Below are positions 1-38,639 of a DNA stretch of 38,639 nucleotides, piece after piece. The translations under genes and the position numbers were made by a program. How positions within the stretch are numbered: position 1 is the stretch's first letter; each line of letters opens with the position of its first letter. Location of the stretch: positions 1 through 38,639 of the IMG/VR virus record IMGVR_UViG_2778261594_000006; one strand, given 5' to 3'. The notes under the pieces are model-generated. The model made no database searches and was not told the DNA's origin. It was given only the letters and a program-made list of their open reading frames with translations. Origin of the DNA: a virus (taxonomy: Duplodnaviria; Heunggongvirae; Uroviricota; Caudoviricetes).

Positions 1-1248
1 ATGGCACTGAATATTCCATTCAGAAATGCGTACTATCGTTTTGCATCCAGTTACTCATTTCTCTTTTTTATTTCCTGGTCGCTGTGGTGGTCGTTATACG
101 CTATTTGGCTGAAAGGACATCTAGGGTTGACAGGGACGGAATTAGGTACACTTTATTCGGTCAACCAGTTTACCAGCATTCTATTTATGATGTTCTACGG
201 CATCGTTCAGGATAAACTCGGTCTGAAGAAACCGCTCATCTGGTGTATGAGTTTCATCCTGGTCTTGACCGGACCGTTTATGATTTACGTTTATGAACCG
301 TTACTGCAAAGCAATTTTTCTGTAGGTCTAATTCTGGGGGCGCTATTTTTTGGCTTGGGGTATCTGGCGGGATGCGGTTTGCTTGATAGCTTCACCGAAA
401 AAATGGCGCGAAATTTTCATTTCGAATATGGAACAGCGCGCGCCTGGGGATCTTTTGGCTATGCTATTGGCGCGTTCTTTGCCGGCATATTTTTTAGTAT
501 CAGTCCCCATATCAACTTCTGGTTGGTCTCGCTATTTGGCGCTGTATTTATGATGATCAACATGCGTTTTAAAGATAAGGATCACCAGTGCGTAGCGGCA
601 GATGCGGGAGGGGTAAAAAAAGAGGATTTTATCGCAGTTTTCAAGGATCGAAACTTCTGGGTTTTCGTCATATTTATTGTGGGGACGTGGTCTTTCTATA
701 ACATTTTTGATCAACAACTTTTTCCTGTCTTTTATGCAGGTTTATTCGAATCACACGATGTAGGAACGCGCCTGTATGGTTATCTCAACTCATTCCAGGT
801 GGTACTCGAAGCGCTGTGCATGGCGATTATTCCTTTCTTTGTGAATCGGGTAGGGCCAAAAAATGCATTACTTATCGGAGTTGTGATTATGGCGTTGCGT
901 ATCCTTTCCTGCGCGCTGTTCGTTAACCCCTGGATTATTTCATTAGTGAAGTTGTTACATGCCATTGAGGTTCCACTTTGTGTCATATCCGTCTTCAAAT
1001 ACAGCGTGGCAAACTTTGATAAGCGCCTGTCGTCGACGATCTTTCTGATTGGTTTTCAAATTGCCAGTTCGCTTGGGATTGTGCTGCTTTCAACGCCGAC
1101 TGGGATACTCTTTGACCACGCAGGCTACCAGACAGTTTTCTTCGCAATTTCGGGTATTGTCTGCCTGATGTTGCTATTTGGCATTTTCTTCTTGAGTAAA
1201 AAACGCGAGCAAATAGTTATGGAAACGCCTGTACCTTCAGCAATATAG
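1..1248 (+). CDS. cscB: Sucrose permease, MFS oligosaccharide:H+ symporter (LacY family); chromosomal gene flanking the prophage
   Basis: 415-aa ORF with 12-TM-like hydrophobic pattern and clear LacY-family similarity; sequence matches my recollection of E. coli CscB. The csc locus is known to sit beside argW/dsd. Confidence 0.8.
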   Translation: MALNIPFRNAYYRFASSYSFLFFISWSLWWSLYAIWLKGHLGLTGTELGTLYSVNQFTSILFMMFYGIVQDKLGLKKPLIWCMSFILVLTGPFMIYVYEPLLQSNFSVGLILGALFFGLGYLAGCGLLDSFTEKMARNFHFEYGTARAWGSFGYAIGAFFAGIFFSISPHINFWLVSLFGAVFMMINMRFKDKDHQCVAADAGGVKKEDFIAVFKDRNFWVFVIFIVGTWSFYNIFDQQLFPVFYAGLFESHDVGTRLYGYLNSFQVVLEALCMAIIPFFVNRVGPKNALLIGVVIMALRILSCALFVNPWIISLVKLLHAIEVPLCVISVFKYSVANFDKRLSSTIFLIGFQIASSLGIVLLSTPTGILFDHAGYQTVFFAISGIVCLMLLFGIFFLSKKREQIVMETPVPSAI

Positions 1249-34106: not shown

Positions 34107-34499
34107 TTAGCGGTTGATGGTTGCTTTTTTCGGGTCATACCATCTCGGCCATTCTTTCAGGAATGGGAATGAGTCGGGTGCGTGGTTCTTTTTGTACGAT
34201 TTAAGCAGCCTTAACCGCTCAATTGCACACTCATAAACCTCTTGTTGCCCTGTAGTCATCTCGGTCCATGAAAGGTGATCCATTGATAAGACAACGTTTT
34301 CAGCTTCTTTTATGAGGGCGTTTTTATTTCTCACCGCAGCAGCATGGCTGACAGAGCAATCCTGCCATATTCTTAAAAGCCAAATAGCTAAGCAGATGAA
34401 AAAAATGGTAGATAGCGATATATACACACCAACCTCTTTAGTTTTTCTAGTTACTTTGTCACGATAGGATATGCGAAATGATAAAACTAAATTGCGCAC
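34107..34499 (-). CDS. Single-TM membrane protein (130 aa), candidate superinfection-exclusion moron (sieA position)
   Basis: TM segment VYISLSTIFFICLAIWLLRIW; AT-rich; GTG start with weak RBS, so the start is uncertain. Confidence 0.45.
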   Translation of the reverse strand: MRNLVLSFRISYRDKVTRKTKEVGVYISLSTIFFICLAIWLLRIWQDCSVSHAAAVRNKNALIKEAENVVLSMDHLSWTEMTTGQQEVYECAIERLRLLKSYKKNHAPDSFPFLKEWPRWYDPKKATINR

Positions 34500-34687
34500 A
34501 TGATAACTCAGTAATAATTGTTAATGAAAACATGATCACCTATATTGCACAAGGCGAAACAGGAAGCATAATCTGGTTTCATGAGAGTGATCACGCTTGG
34601 GTAAATCAAAGTCAAGAGGAAATACTTGAAATTATCAAAAATAACTATCTAAACGTTGCACACGACTCATCTATCCATTTTTCATAA
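34478..34687 (+). CDS. Questionable small ORF (69 aa) on the opposite strand within the AT-rich cassette
   Basis: ATG with AGGA RBS; overlaps both flanking minus-strand genes. Confidence 0.2.
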   Translation: MIKLNCAHDNSVIIVNENMITYIAQGETGSIIWFHESDHAWVNQSQEEILEIIKNNYLNVAHDSSIHFS

Positions 34688-35226
34688 AATTGTATACCGA
34701 GATAGGCAAGAACAGATGGATGTATATCAACAAGCTTTTCGCCAAGATGTTCTGTTGGAGGTGGATAATCTTTGCCTTGGTTTCTTACGGTTATAGGCAT
34801 AGTTGTTGCTGGATGAAACTCAACTATCATAGGGTCGCCTTCGTATTTTGCTATTTTCCCTGTTGAATCAATGATTAACTCTTTAATATAATGGCTTCTT
34901 GCTCCCGGAAATGCCCCAAGAGTAGTATAAGGAGGTTCAAGTTTTGAGATTTCCATAGTGGAATGATGATCAGCATTTCTTGCTTGGTGAAGGTAAGCAA
35001 GTGTTTTGTCTGTTTTTCTAAGCATGAACTTTTGGTTGAAGTGGCTGCTAAATTTTCCACTAACCGGCTTTGTTGCACAGAGCAACTTACTGAAAGACTT
35101 TTCTATATGCCCAAGACATTCTCGCCAGTGCATTTCAAAATCATCATGGTTTGTAGATGATTTCATCTGCTCTAGGCACTTTTTAGCTGCGATTATTTCT
35201 TTTTTTGCTGGGTTGTAATCGATCAT
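34645..35226 (-). CDS. Hypothetical protein (193 aa) translationally coupled to mnt; candidate lysogen-expressed exclusion/defense protein
   Basis: ATG overlaps the mnt stop (ATGA); AT-rich; no recognizable domain by eye. Confidence 0.55.
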   Translation of the reverse strand: MIDYNPAKKEIIAAKKCLEQMKSSTNHDDFEMHWRECLGHIEKSFSKLLCATKPVSGKFSSHFNQKFMLRKTDKTLAYLHQARNADHHSTMEISKLEPPYTTLGAFPGARSHYIKELIIDSTGKIAKYEGDPMIVEFHPATTMPITVRNQGKDYPPPTEHLGEKLVDIHPSVLAYLGIQFYEKWIDESCATFR

Positions 35227-35791: not shown

Positions 35792-36721
35792 ATGAAAAGT
35801 ATAGCAACAGCAGTATCTACTATCAACGTGCCATTCCACGGCGCAGAGCTTTATGTCGTCAATCACAACGGTGAGCCGTACACCCCAATGAAACCTATCG
35901 TTGAAGGTATGGGTATGGATTGGGCTTCACAGTTTACGAAAATAAAGCAACGGTTTAAAACCTCCATTGTGAAAATCACAATGCAGCTTCCTGGTGATGA
36001 ACAGTGCCGTGAGATTATTTGTTTGGCACTTCGCAAACTTGCTGGCTGGCTGCAAACCATCAGCCCTAACAAAGTCCGCCCTGAAATCCGCGACAAGGTA
36101 ATCCAGTATCAGGAAGAGTGTGACGATGTGCTCTACGAGTACTGGACTAAAGGCCATGTAGTTAACCCACGCAAAGCTAAAAGGGCGTTGCCGGGTAAAA
36201 TCACCACTGAACAGCAGGAAGCCATTAAACAACTCGTCATGAGTCGCGGTCAGTCTCTGCCAAAAGAAAAACAGGCTAAGGCGATGATCACCATGTGGTC
36301 GTCACTGAAATCCCATTTTGGATGTTCGTACAAAGAAATCAGTGAGGAGCAGTTTACCGAAGCACTGTCACTTGCAGCTCGAGTTCCACTTGAAGGTGAG
36401 TTCATTGGCAAACAAGAGAAGAAAACCAACGAGCTTTCTGCAAAAGAAGCAAACAGCCTTGTATGGTTATGGGATTATGCTAACCGTTCACAGGCATTAT
36501 TCCGCGAACTGTATCCGGCATTAAAACAAATTCAATCGAACTATTCCGGCAGATGCTACGACTACGGTCATGAATTCTCGTATGTTATCGGAATGGCGAG
36601 AGACGTTTTAATCAATCACACACGAGATGTTGATATCAATGAGCCAGACGGACCAACGAATCTTTCCGCATGGATGAGACTTAAGAATAAAGAATTACCT
36701 CCTTCAGTACATAACTACTGA
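35792..36721 (+). CDS. ant: Antirepressor Ant
   Basis: 309-aa ORF downstream of arc in the immI arrangement; followed by a terminator. Confidence 0.7.
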
Positions 36722-36740
36722 CAGATAACCAACGCAACGA

Positions 36741-36763
36741 CCCAGCTTCGGCTGGGTTTTTTT
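36741..36763 (+). terminator. Rho-independent terminator after ant
   Basis: CCCAGC-UUCG-GCUGGG followed by TTTTTTT. Confidence 0.8.
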
Positions 36764-36821
36764 ATGCCCAAAATTCACCGTAGCCATGCTGCGGCGATTC
36801 CTTGTATCTGGAGCAAATTAA

Positions 36822-38639
36822 ATGTCAAATATCACCGCCAATGTTGTGGTAAGCATGCCTTCGCAACTCTTCACTATGGCTCGTTCTTTTAAAGCCGTAG
36901 CCAATGGCAAAATTTATATCGGTAAAATTGACACGGATCCGGTAAATCCTGAAAACCAGATTCAGGTTTATGTGGAGAACGAAGACGGCTCTCACGTTCC
37001 TGTTTCTCAACCAATCATCATTAACGCTGCTGGTTATCCGGTATATAACGGACAGATTGCCAAGTTCGTTACAGTGCAAGGCCATTCTATGGCTGTATAT
37101 GATGCATATGGCACTCAGCAGTTTTATTTTCCAAATGTATTAAAATACGATCCAGATCAGTTAAGGCAACAGCTTGAGAGTAGTTCTGGTGCTGACATAG
37201 TCATGACTGGATCAGCTCCATTCATTGTTAGAAGTGTTGGCGACATTCTAAAAGACATTCCTACCAATAAATATTTTGGTGCCAAATGTGATGGTGTAAC
37301 TGATGATACAGTAGCAAATCAAACTGCTCTTGACTGGTCTGCTGATAACAAAAGAGATATTATTTTTGTAGGTAAAAGTTGTATAACTGAAAGACTTATT
37401 CATAAATCAGGTTCACGAGTCACGCATCTCGGAGAAATAAAACCCCGTGACTTTTCAGATGATGTTGTTATTGAGGTAAAAGACGACGCGTGGAGGGATC
37501 CTTACAATGATGGAATAACGGCAATAGATACAGGTGATAGAGTTCATATTGATGGTCTATATATTGCCCCTGACTCTGTAATAGATGCTGTTGGTATTCT
37601 TGGTACTGATGGAGTGGATCCGATCATATCAAGATTAAGAACATTCAACATGAGAAGGGGAGGAATTAAGATTGTTAAGGGGTATGGATGGAACATATCA
37701 AACATTTCAATCATTGCACCTTTTGATCAAAATAACTCTCATGATTATGCAGGAATTAGACATGAAACGTCAGATTCATTTTATTCTAACGTTATAGTTT
37801 CAGGATATACTACTGGACTTGATATGCCTGGAAATGCTAATCAAGTATCAAAGGCCCACTGCTGGGGAATGTCATCACCAGATAGAACCACTCGTAATAT
37901 GTTATTCGGCCTTAAAATGAGCGGTAGTGGTAATAACGTAGTGCAATTCTATTCTGACTCACCGAAAAAAATAAACAAAACACAAGCAGCCAGTATTACA
38001 AATGGAGGGATTGGTTATGTAATTTCTGGTTTTAACAACACATTTTTATCACCTAGGAACCTATCTCATCAGGATTGTGGCTTGAAATATGGTAAGGTTT
38101 TTCTGATATCTGGTTCTGAGAATACCTTTATTAGCCCCTTAATAGGTGATTATGCATACATTGAAGATGATGGATTTTTCACATTTACAGATTCGGCAAG
38201 CCCGCTAAACAACTATGTTTATGGTGGAAATATGCAATCTACATATTTGTATCCAATCGCAAGCGGTAGCTACAAGCCAACAGTAAATATACCGTGTACA
38301 TATACAAATCAGTCATATACGCATAATATTTTACAAAAAAACGTAATTGGACGTGTAGTTATAACATGCAATATAACTAATAATTCTTCAGGAGATACAT
38401 TTTACATTCAACTACCTCCTTACCTATCAACAATAGCAGGTAGTGCTGTTGGCTCAATAACAAATAATCTTACAACCTCAATAAGATCAGATACCAATCT
38501 TTTTGCCGTAGAGCCTTATGTGGCAGATGGAAGGATATATTTCAGGAGAATATTTAGAGCTGGAGCATCAGACGATATAAAACAAAACATGTTTAATACA
38601 GGAAACGCATTCTTTGATATATCAATAAACGCAAGATAA
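36822..38639 (+). CDS. Tailspike protein: P22 gp9-type N-terminal head-binding domain fused to a divergent beta-helix receptor-binding domain
   Basis: First about 110 aa ([46 protein letters not shown]...VLKYDPDQ) match the P22 tailspike head-binding domain; the remainder is AT-rich and unrelated to the P22 endorhamnosidase domain; stop at the window end. Confidence 0.9.

Follow-up and report, generated by a model that had tools for sequence, protein, structure and literature searches.

A P22-like prophage tailspike that joins a conserved head-binding domain to a foreign beta-helix module most likely directed at the Escherichia coli O153 O-antigen

The window, by which we mean the whole 38,639-nucleotide stretch of DNA that was analysed, begins (positions 1 to 1248, plus strand) inside the host gene cscB for sucrose permease (LacY_symp E = 1e-193), and its last three bases are the stop codon of a tailspike gene. 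Because it starts within cscB, the window represents a chromosomal prophage segment from the csc/argW region of E. coli rather than a packaged phage genome. Large blocks of it are 93-96% identical to CUS-3, Kapi1, phiv205-1 and other Lederbergvirus-type phages. As in P22-like genomes, the tailspike gene closes the late region, behind the genes for the ejection proteins and an immI region (mnt/arc/ant), and is preceded by genes for a gp16-like DNA transfer protein (phrog_770), two Arc/Mnt-like repressors and a P22-type antirepressor (PF10547/PF10548). The gene order up to the tailspike is that of P22 and HK620, and a terminator-like hairpin occupies the position of tANT, the annotations of both of these phages putting a terminator after ant or an ant remnant. 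Near-identical genes, annotated as phage tailspike or head-binding-domain proteins, are present in four complete E. coli genomes and are 95.8-99.5% identical over the C-terminal part. The gene is the tailspike gene of a P22-like (Lederbergvirus-type) prophage inserted in an E. coli chromosome with cscB on one side and argW on the other.

36739 to 36758, plus strand: terminator-like GC hairpin with a T run, found by pattern scan between ant and the tailspike gene
36822 to 38639, plus strand: tailspike gene, intact, with an ATG start and 605 codons plus stop, from the list of open reading frames and its translation

The second most AT-rich stretch of the window (34107-35226, minus strand, approximately 33-40% GC) separates the gp16-like gene from the mnt/arc region, at the place that sieA occupies in P22. 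Its two open reading frames, at 34645-35226 (phrog_23516, 193 aa) and 34107-34499 (phrog_10450, 130 aa), returned neither a Pfam match nor a PADLOC defence-system match, and they may be superinfection-exclusion or moron genes.

Tailspikes of P22-like phages are homotrimers that sit on the tail hub, six to a virion. The polypeptide encoded here can be divided into the following parts, the last three of which are drawn from a structure model and from family alignments.

36822 to 37160, plus strand: head-binding (virion-anchor) domain, aa 1-113, PF09008, with KYDPDQ at its C-terminal end
37161 to 37355, plus strand: neck/linker and N-terminal beta-helix cap, aa 114-178, including the [12 protein letters not shown]...ALDWS cap motif
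37308 to 38270, plus strand: predicted right-handed parallel beta-helix body, approximately aa 163-483, the presumed domain for O-antigen binding and cleavage
37773 to 37958, plus strand: stretch of invariant residues, with D318 (37773-37775), N340, H346-x-W348 (37857-37865) and D379 (37956-37958)
38283 to 38636, plus strand: predicted C-terminal beta-sandwich, approximately aa 488-605 (model residues 375-492), with long antiparallel strands and pLDDT above 90

An earlier reading made from the sequence alone (hereafter the sequence-only reading) had likened residues 1 to about 110 closely to the head-binding domain of P22 gp9, and this description holds. The Head_binding profile PF09008 matches aa 1-113 over its full length (profile positions 1-113, E = 7e-67, 223 bits against a cut-off of 24), and BLASTP aligns the same residues with P22 gp9 at 85 identities in 113 (75%), the alignment stopping exactly at KYDPDQ. 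At the DNA level, HK620, N7, CUS-3 and Sf6 are 87-93% identical over gene nucleotides 1-350 only, and a megablast search against 50,697 phage records gave no DNA match past gene nucleotide 351. When sequences in the PDB were searched, P22 chains aligned at aa 1-117 only and Sf6 gp14 aligned over aa 1-174 by way of a gapped neck and the cap motif; apart from this Sf6 neck and cap, the search returned no match beyond the anchor.

The remaining 492 residues (aa 114-605) had been described as strongly AT-rich, rich in N, S, T and G, and unrelated to the P22 endorhamnosidase. Their coding sequence has 36.3% GC (GC3 23.8%) and the remainder of the window 47.8% (chi-square p = 4e-18), which is a significant shift; it is the lowest value among all windows of 1476 nucleotides, the minimum elsewhere being 38.4%, and the best two-segment composition change point falls at nt 37121. 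The enrichment in N+S+T+G is real but modest (33.9%, compared with 24.8% in the head-binding domain). As for the endorhamnosidase, a BLASTP comparison of the C-terminal part alone with aa 115-667 of P22 gp9 gave a best E-value of 2.9, and thus no detectable sequence similarity to the rest of that protein. The claim of unrelatedness stands for the sequence but not for the fold, which is predicted to be of the same right-handed beta-helix class as gp9. The module after aa 113 is compositionally foreign.

It could be argued that the composition shift is no sign of foreign origin and stems simply from the N, I, S and T residues that abound in a beta-helix. The C-terminal part does contain somewhat more N, S, T, G and I, and the head-binding part, itself 41.6% GC, differs from the receptor-binding part in total GC only at p = 0.076. 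However, the drop is greatest at third codon positions, from 38.9% GC3 in the head-binding part to 23.8%, which amino acids do not explain, and amino-acid content is therefore excluded as the sole cause. The module moreover keeps a GC content of 36-39% in every genomic context, against flanks of 46-52%, and its DNA breakpoints against four relatives are sharp. GC3 and the mapped breakpoints effectively refute the amino-acid reading, to which we give almost no credence.

Alignment with homologues that bear other N-termini sets the protein-level boundary at Q113/L114 (nt 37160/37161), and comparison with HK620 places a first DNA breakpoint at nt 37166. HK620 is 92-100% identical over nt 36702-37166, a stretch that also spans the terminator-like hairpin (93-98%), and is unrelated beyond. 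In the prophage of strain 2017.15.01CC, by contrast, the head-binding allele is only approximately 70% identical, and identity from the KYDPDQ codons on is 92-100%. Together these two patterns indicate that one module has been joined to two anchor alleles at the same point. A second breakpoint lies at about aa 144 (nt ~37250), since a phiV10-type protein (P0003) is near-identical only from there onward. A third lies at approximately nt 37355 (K177/R178), where prophages of the TST3 type, which are 95-98% identical over nt 37170-37355, fall to about 55%; upstream of this shared neck and cap segment, the DNA of TST3-type tailspikes is approximately 70% identical. Because aa 114-178 are so well conserved in the TST3-type prophages while the flanks on both sides diverge, the neck/cap segment is separately exchangeable. 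In this gene, the KYDPDQ-LR codons and the neck/cap segment serve as crossover points. The sequence-only reading had placed a single junction at about 37150-37200, and both Q113/L114 and nt 37166 fall inside that interval, but at least three nested breakpoints, from 37166 to ~37355, take the place of the single junction.

An exhaustive phmmer search of 1.84 billion cluster representatives found 55 clusters at E <= 1e-3, only three of them at about 50% identity or more, and cluster representatives of the TSP3-type module were matched at E-values of 1e-165 to 1e-185. TSP3 itself is a tailspike of the Agtrevirus AV101 (WJJ54145.1), and it is homologous to our module throughout, from the neck through the beta-helix to the C-terminal domain (492/492 residues at 52% identity and 68% similarity, with only 2 gaps). 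Among deposited phages, only AV101 and EcoIv28_Lewi carry the module. Its anchors elsewhere include PF09008, PF18668 (the Ackermannviridae/G7C-type Tail_spike_N), PF03906 (the T7 tail-fibre N-terminal domain) and a phiV10-type (Uetakevirus) anchor that is 84% identical to the N-terminus of the phiV10 tail fibre. In a lambdoid siphovirus prophage, a related module comes after a lambda-J-like gene, and homologues occur also in Enterobacter cloacae and Proteus mirabilis. That one and the same module is attached to a number of unrelated anchors, and also to a divergent head-binding allele, demonstrates horizontal exchange of the receptor-binding part, just as the sequence-only reading had suggested. 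These comparisons show that the module family has moved by recombination among P22-like, phiV10-like, T7-fibre-anchored, lambdoid and Ackermannviridae phages.

Two further fusions were encountered among the homologues. A 691-aa open reading frame (P0001, locus L005 8001-10076) carries the N-terminus of a gp16 ejection protein in frame with a 100% identical module from L114 on. We considered it as a fifth anchor type and rejected it: its prophage is heavily deleted and decayed, and the fusion of the gp16 N-terminus to the tailspike is therefore a deletion artefact. In a protein of 437 aa encoded outside the window (P0070), a LysR-family regulator, named D-serine deaminase activator by one source, is joined to roughly half of a related tailspike module, the match covering 53% of the query at 50% identity. 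Presumably this is another product of prophage decay, at the dsdC/csc/argW locus.

The sequence-only reading had proposed domain and structure prediction for the C-terminal part, and this revealed a beta-helix. An AlphaFold2 monomer model of aa 114-605, built from an alignment of 45 homologues (pLDDT 84.4, pTM 0.81), consists of a neck of low confidence, a right-handed parallel beta-helix of the pectate-lyase-like superfamily, and a confident C-terminal beta-sandwich; residues 114-152 are of low confidence or disordered in this monomer. The modelled module is only 10-16% identical to solved tailspikes, and its fold class is that used by P22 gp9 and by most tailspikes. Structure matches do not separate hydrolase, lyase and epimerase. 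In Pfam, the C-terminal part gave nothing beyond a sub-threshold match of the cap motif (aa 151-183) to PF12708 (Pect-lyase_RHGA_epim; E = 1e-4, 22.7 bits against a gathering cut-off of 27), and neither Pfam nor the structural matches contained an SGNH, lipase or other esterase domain. The beta-sandwich is conserved throughout the family, AV101 TSP3 included, and probably serves trimer stabilisation or distal receptor contact.

The alignments (A3, which includes distant homologues, together with A1 and A2) show that D161 in the cap motif, D318, N340, H346, W348 and D379 are invariant down to relatives of 24-30% identity, and that D221 is nearly so. D318, N340, H346, W348 and D379 are candidate catalytic or substrate-binding residues, and within this group D318 and D379, possibly with H346 and the nearly invariant D221, are candidates for the active site.

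Several observations bear on the receptor of this module. With purified AV101 TSP3, translucent zones form on O153 hosts and on no others, apart from small unexplained zones on an O8 strain, and the protein lowers the titre of AV101 by about 5 logs on an O153 host (PMC10791037). [quoted passage not shown] In the O-antigen cluster that we found in lysogen 2017.15.01CC, the wzy gene matches the wzy of strain CE-O153H30 at 100% identity. This wzy type is present in 80 of 5426 complete genomes, and it occurs (at 99.8-100% identity) in at least 10 of the 12 complete E. coli genomes with a tailspike of this family (hypergeometric p = 1.8e-17), the count being a minimum because lysogens XPFI_3_2 and Ec-U18 are absent among the wzy matches listed. 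By subtype, the genomes divide into 3 of 4 with the window-type module and 7 of 8 with the TST3-type module. A genome with a third subtype of the module (strain 2017C-4173W12, protein P0057) belongs to the same wzy set.

The association with O153 thus rests on lysogens with related tailspikes, the O-antigen cluster of the window's own host lying outside the window, and the O153 label is a genotypic one. NCBIfam searches with the lysogen wzy, wzx and glycosyltransferases named no serogroup and assigned only the generic polymerase family TIGR04370, and for this reason the serogroup was taken from a strain name (CE-O153H30, O153:H30) and the literature. One group has reported that the O153 and O178 clusters are 99.9% identical, which another group disputes. 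The O153 repeat has been described as Hex2HexNAc2Pent1 with D-Ribf and without uronic acid; since uronic acid is missing, beta-elimination is implausible and a glycoside hydrolase is the likely chemistry. The sequence-only reading had expected a specificity other than that of P22, and the TSP3 homology and the lysogen wzy genes bear this out in pointing to the E. coli O153 O-antigen, which the module most likely binds and cuts. Its fine specificity may differ from that of AV101 TSP3, given the 48% sequence divergence.

Two of the lysogens have unusual O-antigen loci. In 2017.15.01CC (locus L011, 41753-44142), an IS1 element adjoins gnd, the annotation gives the O-antigen flippase as a truncated pseudogene, and in lysogen TST3 (NZ_CP154406.1) only 52% of wzy was matched. 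Some lysogens may have lost expression of the O-antigen, the receptor of their own prophage.

A gene for a 342-aa protein of the Acyl_transf_3 family lies 36 nucleotides 3' of the tailspike gene, convergent to it, in all examined genomes with this module.

L001, 7496-8524; L003, 6496-7524; L005, 10112-11140; L007, 10152-11180; each convergent to the tailspike gene: 342-aa Acyl_transf_3 gene

This gene is 98.5-100% identical among P22-like prophages and 79% identical in a phiV10-like prophage. In the P22-like prophages, the acyltransferase gene is followed by intS and the tRNA-Arg gene argW. When the P22-like locus L001 is compared with the phiV10-like locus L007, DNA identity of approximately 80% extends from about nucleotide 400 of the tailspike gene to the exact end of the acyltransferase gene, and past that end there is no DNA similarity. 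The acyltransferase gene is 29% GC, lower than the module and its flanks, and the O153 biosynthesis cluster is 32%. A tblastn search found no copy of the gene anywhere in the window, and from the arrangement in the related genomes we predict that it lies just past the window's end, beside this tailspike copy.

Other subtypes of the module have other neighbours. Downstream of the TST3-type module lies a gene for a 364-aa acyltransferase unrelated to the first. The third subtype (P0057, 53% identical; locus L012 7001-11252) stands after a lambda-J-like gene in a siphovirus-type prophage, and is followed by convergent genes for a GtrB-like protein and a Glucos_trans_II protein, a different modification system in the same relative position. 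All three subtypes, mutually only 52-60% identical, are found with O153-genotype hosts. Serotype-conversion genes adjacent to tailspikes are well known, as in gtrABC of P22 and in the annotation of HK620. We tentatively raise the possibility, without favouring it, that the module and its convergent modifier form a mobile two-gene cassette that recognises a receptor and excludes competitors and is transferred as one piece between the unrelated P22-like and phiV10-like phages, with subtypes tuned to differently decorated forms of O153. If this were true, three subtypes with different modifiers could record an arms race over the decoration of O153.

Our overall reading, which we hold with considerable confidence, is that the gene encodes the tailspike of a P22-like prophage in which a head-binding domain is followed by a foreign, O153-cleaving beta-helix module linked to an acyltransferase gene. 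By analogy with P22, the protein would form trimers docked on the tail hub by the head-binding domain. After KYDPDQ, at nt 37161-37166, the gene switches to the foreign module, which is modelled to fold as neck, beta-helix and beta-sandwich. The beta-helix would bind the O-antigen of O153 (O153/O178 genotype) and, acting as an endoglycosidase (hydrolase), would cut it so that the virion could advance to the outer membrane, with D318, D379 and H346, to judge from their conservation, as the likely active-site residues. Finally, the convergent, AT-rich acyltransferase predicted beyond the window's end would modify the same O-antigen, such that lysogens would no longer be good receptors.

Two alternatives to parts of this reading deserve consideration. 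The true receptor might be something other than unmodified O153, for example an O-acetylated or glucosylated form of it, the closely related O178, or a capsule or other glycan of the cell surface. That three such divergent subtypes all occur on O153-genotype hosts leaves room for sub-specificities, each subtype is linked to a different modifier (the 342-aa acyltransferase, the 364-aa acyltransferase, or GtrB with Glucos_trans_II), and to these can be added the unexplained small zones made by AV101 TSP3 on the O8 strain and the ambiguity of the O153/O178 genotype. We nevertheless consider this unlikely, because the tie to one wzy allele is very strong (p ~ 2e-17), the only family member tested is O153-specific in infection-inhibition assays, and P22-like phages of such gene layout classically use O-antigen.

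The other alternative leaves the receptor as it is and concerns what the beta-helix does there: it might bind O-antigen without cleaving it, or might be a deacetylase or esterase rather than a glycosidase. The proposed catalytic residues are candidates drawn from alignment, the fold matches include non-enzymatic beta-helix adhesins such as PfbA, and linkage to an acyltransferase makes acetyl groups part of the biology of the receptor. Against this, no SGNH or other esterase domain appears in the Pfam and structure searches, the translucent zones of AV101 TSP3 are typical of depolymerisation, and the acidic residues D318 and D379 persist unchanged even in relatives of 24% identity, and so we judge a non-glycosidase function to be quite improbable. 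Cleavage of the O153 O-antigen by a hydrolase remains the reading that we prefer.

These results leave the current understanding of tailspike evolution and function unchanged. They add a probable O153-specific module to the catalogue of Lederbergvirus tailspikes. Such a module is useful for predicting the host range of prophages and for serotyping in silico by way of the prophages present, and it is a candidate reagent against O153 strains, among which ESBL and ETEC lineages have been reported (PMC10791037). The nested breakpoints and the co-transfer of module and acyltransferase also offer a concrete and testable case of joint inheritance of specificity and superinfection exclusion.

By its anchor and position, the gene is best classed as a P22-type tailspike, and by sequence its receptor-binding part belongs with the AV101 TSP3-type module and not with the gp9 endorhamnosidase family. 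With the tailspikes of P22 (gp9), HK620, Sf6 and CUS-3 it has in common the anchor, the gene position and the plan of anchor, neck, beta-helix and C-terminal domain. It also resembles P22 in that an O-antigen modification gene follows the tailspike (gtrABC in P22, the acyltransferase in relatives of the window). It differs in that the receptor-binding part has no detectable similarity to the endorhamnosidase, and none beyond the cap motif to the corresponding domains of HK620 and Sf6, and in that the predicted receptor is E. coli O153, whereas the P22-like relatives recognise Salmonella O:4,12, E. coli O18A1 and Shigella Y. Tailspikes of the SGNH esterase type, such as G7C gp63.1, are set apart by a domain that was not found here. 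AV101 TSP3 resembles the 492-aa module from end to end, sharing the C-terminal domain and every invariant residue, but AV101 attaches its module to an Ackermannviridae Tail_spike_N anchor and is a virulent 157-kb myovirus with four tailspikes.

The arrangement represents textbook tailspike modularity and ordinary phage mosaicism. Pas et al. (2023; PMC10408124) described a system in which the anchor follows the phage genus and the receptor-binding domain follows the O-serogroup and moves across genera, with subtypes exchanged among Lederberg-, Uetake-, Kayfuna-, Kutter- and other viruses, and they likewise used the serogroup of lysogens to assign specificity. O153 is absent from the 14 serogroups that they assigned, and the conserved flanking recombination motifs that they reported were found in lytic genera and not in Lederberg- or Uetakeviruses (PMC10408124). 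Our case differs from theirs in that the shared block takes in the downstream acyltransferase gene and has its 3' border past it, and this evidence that a tailspike module and its modifier move between genera as one block may be slightly new.
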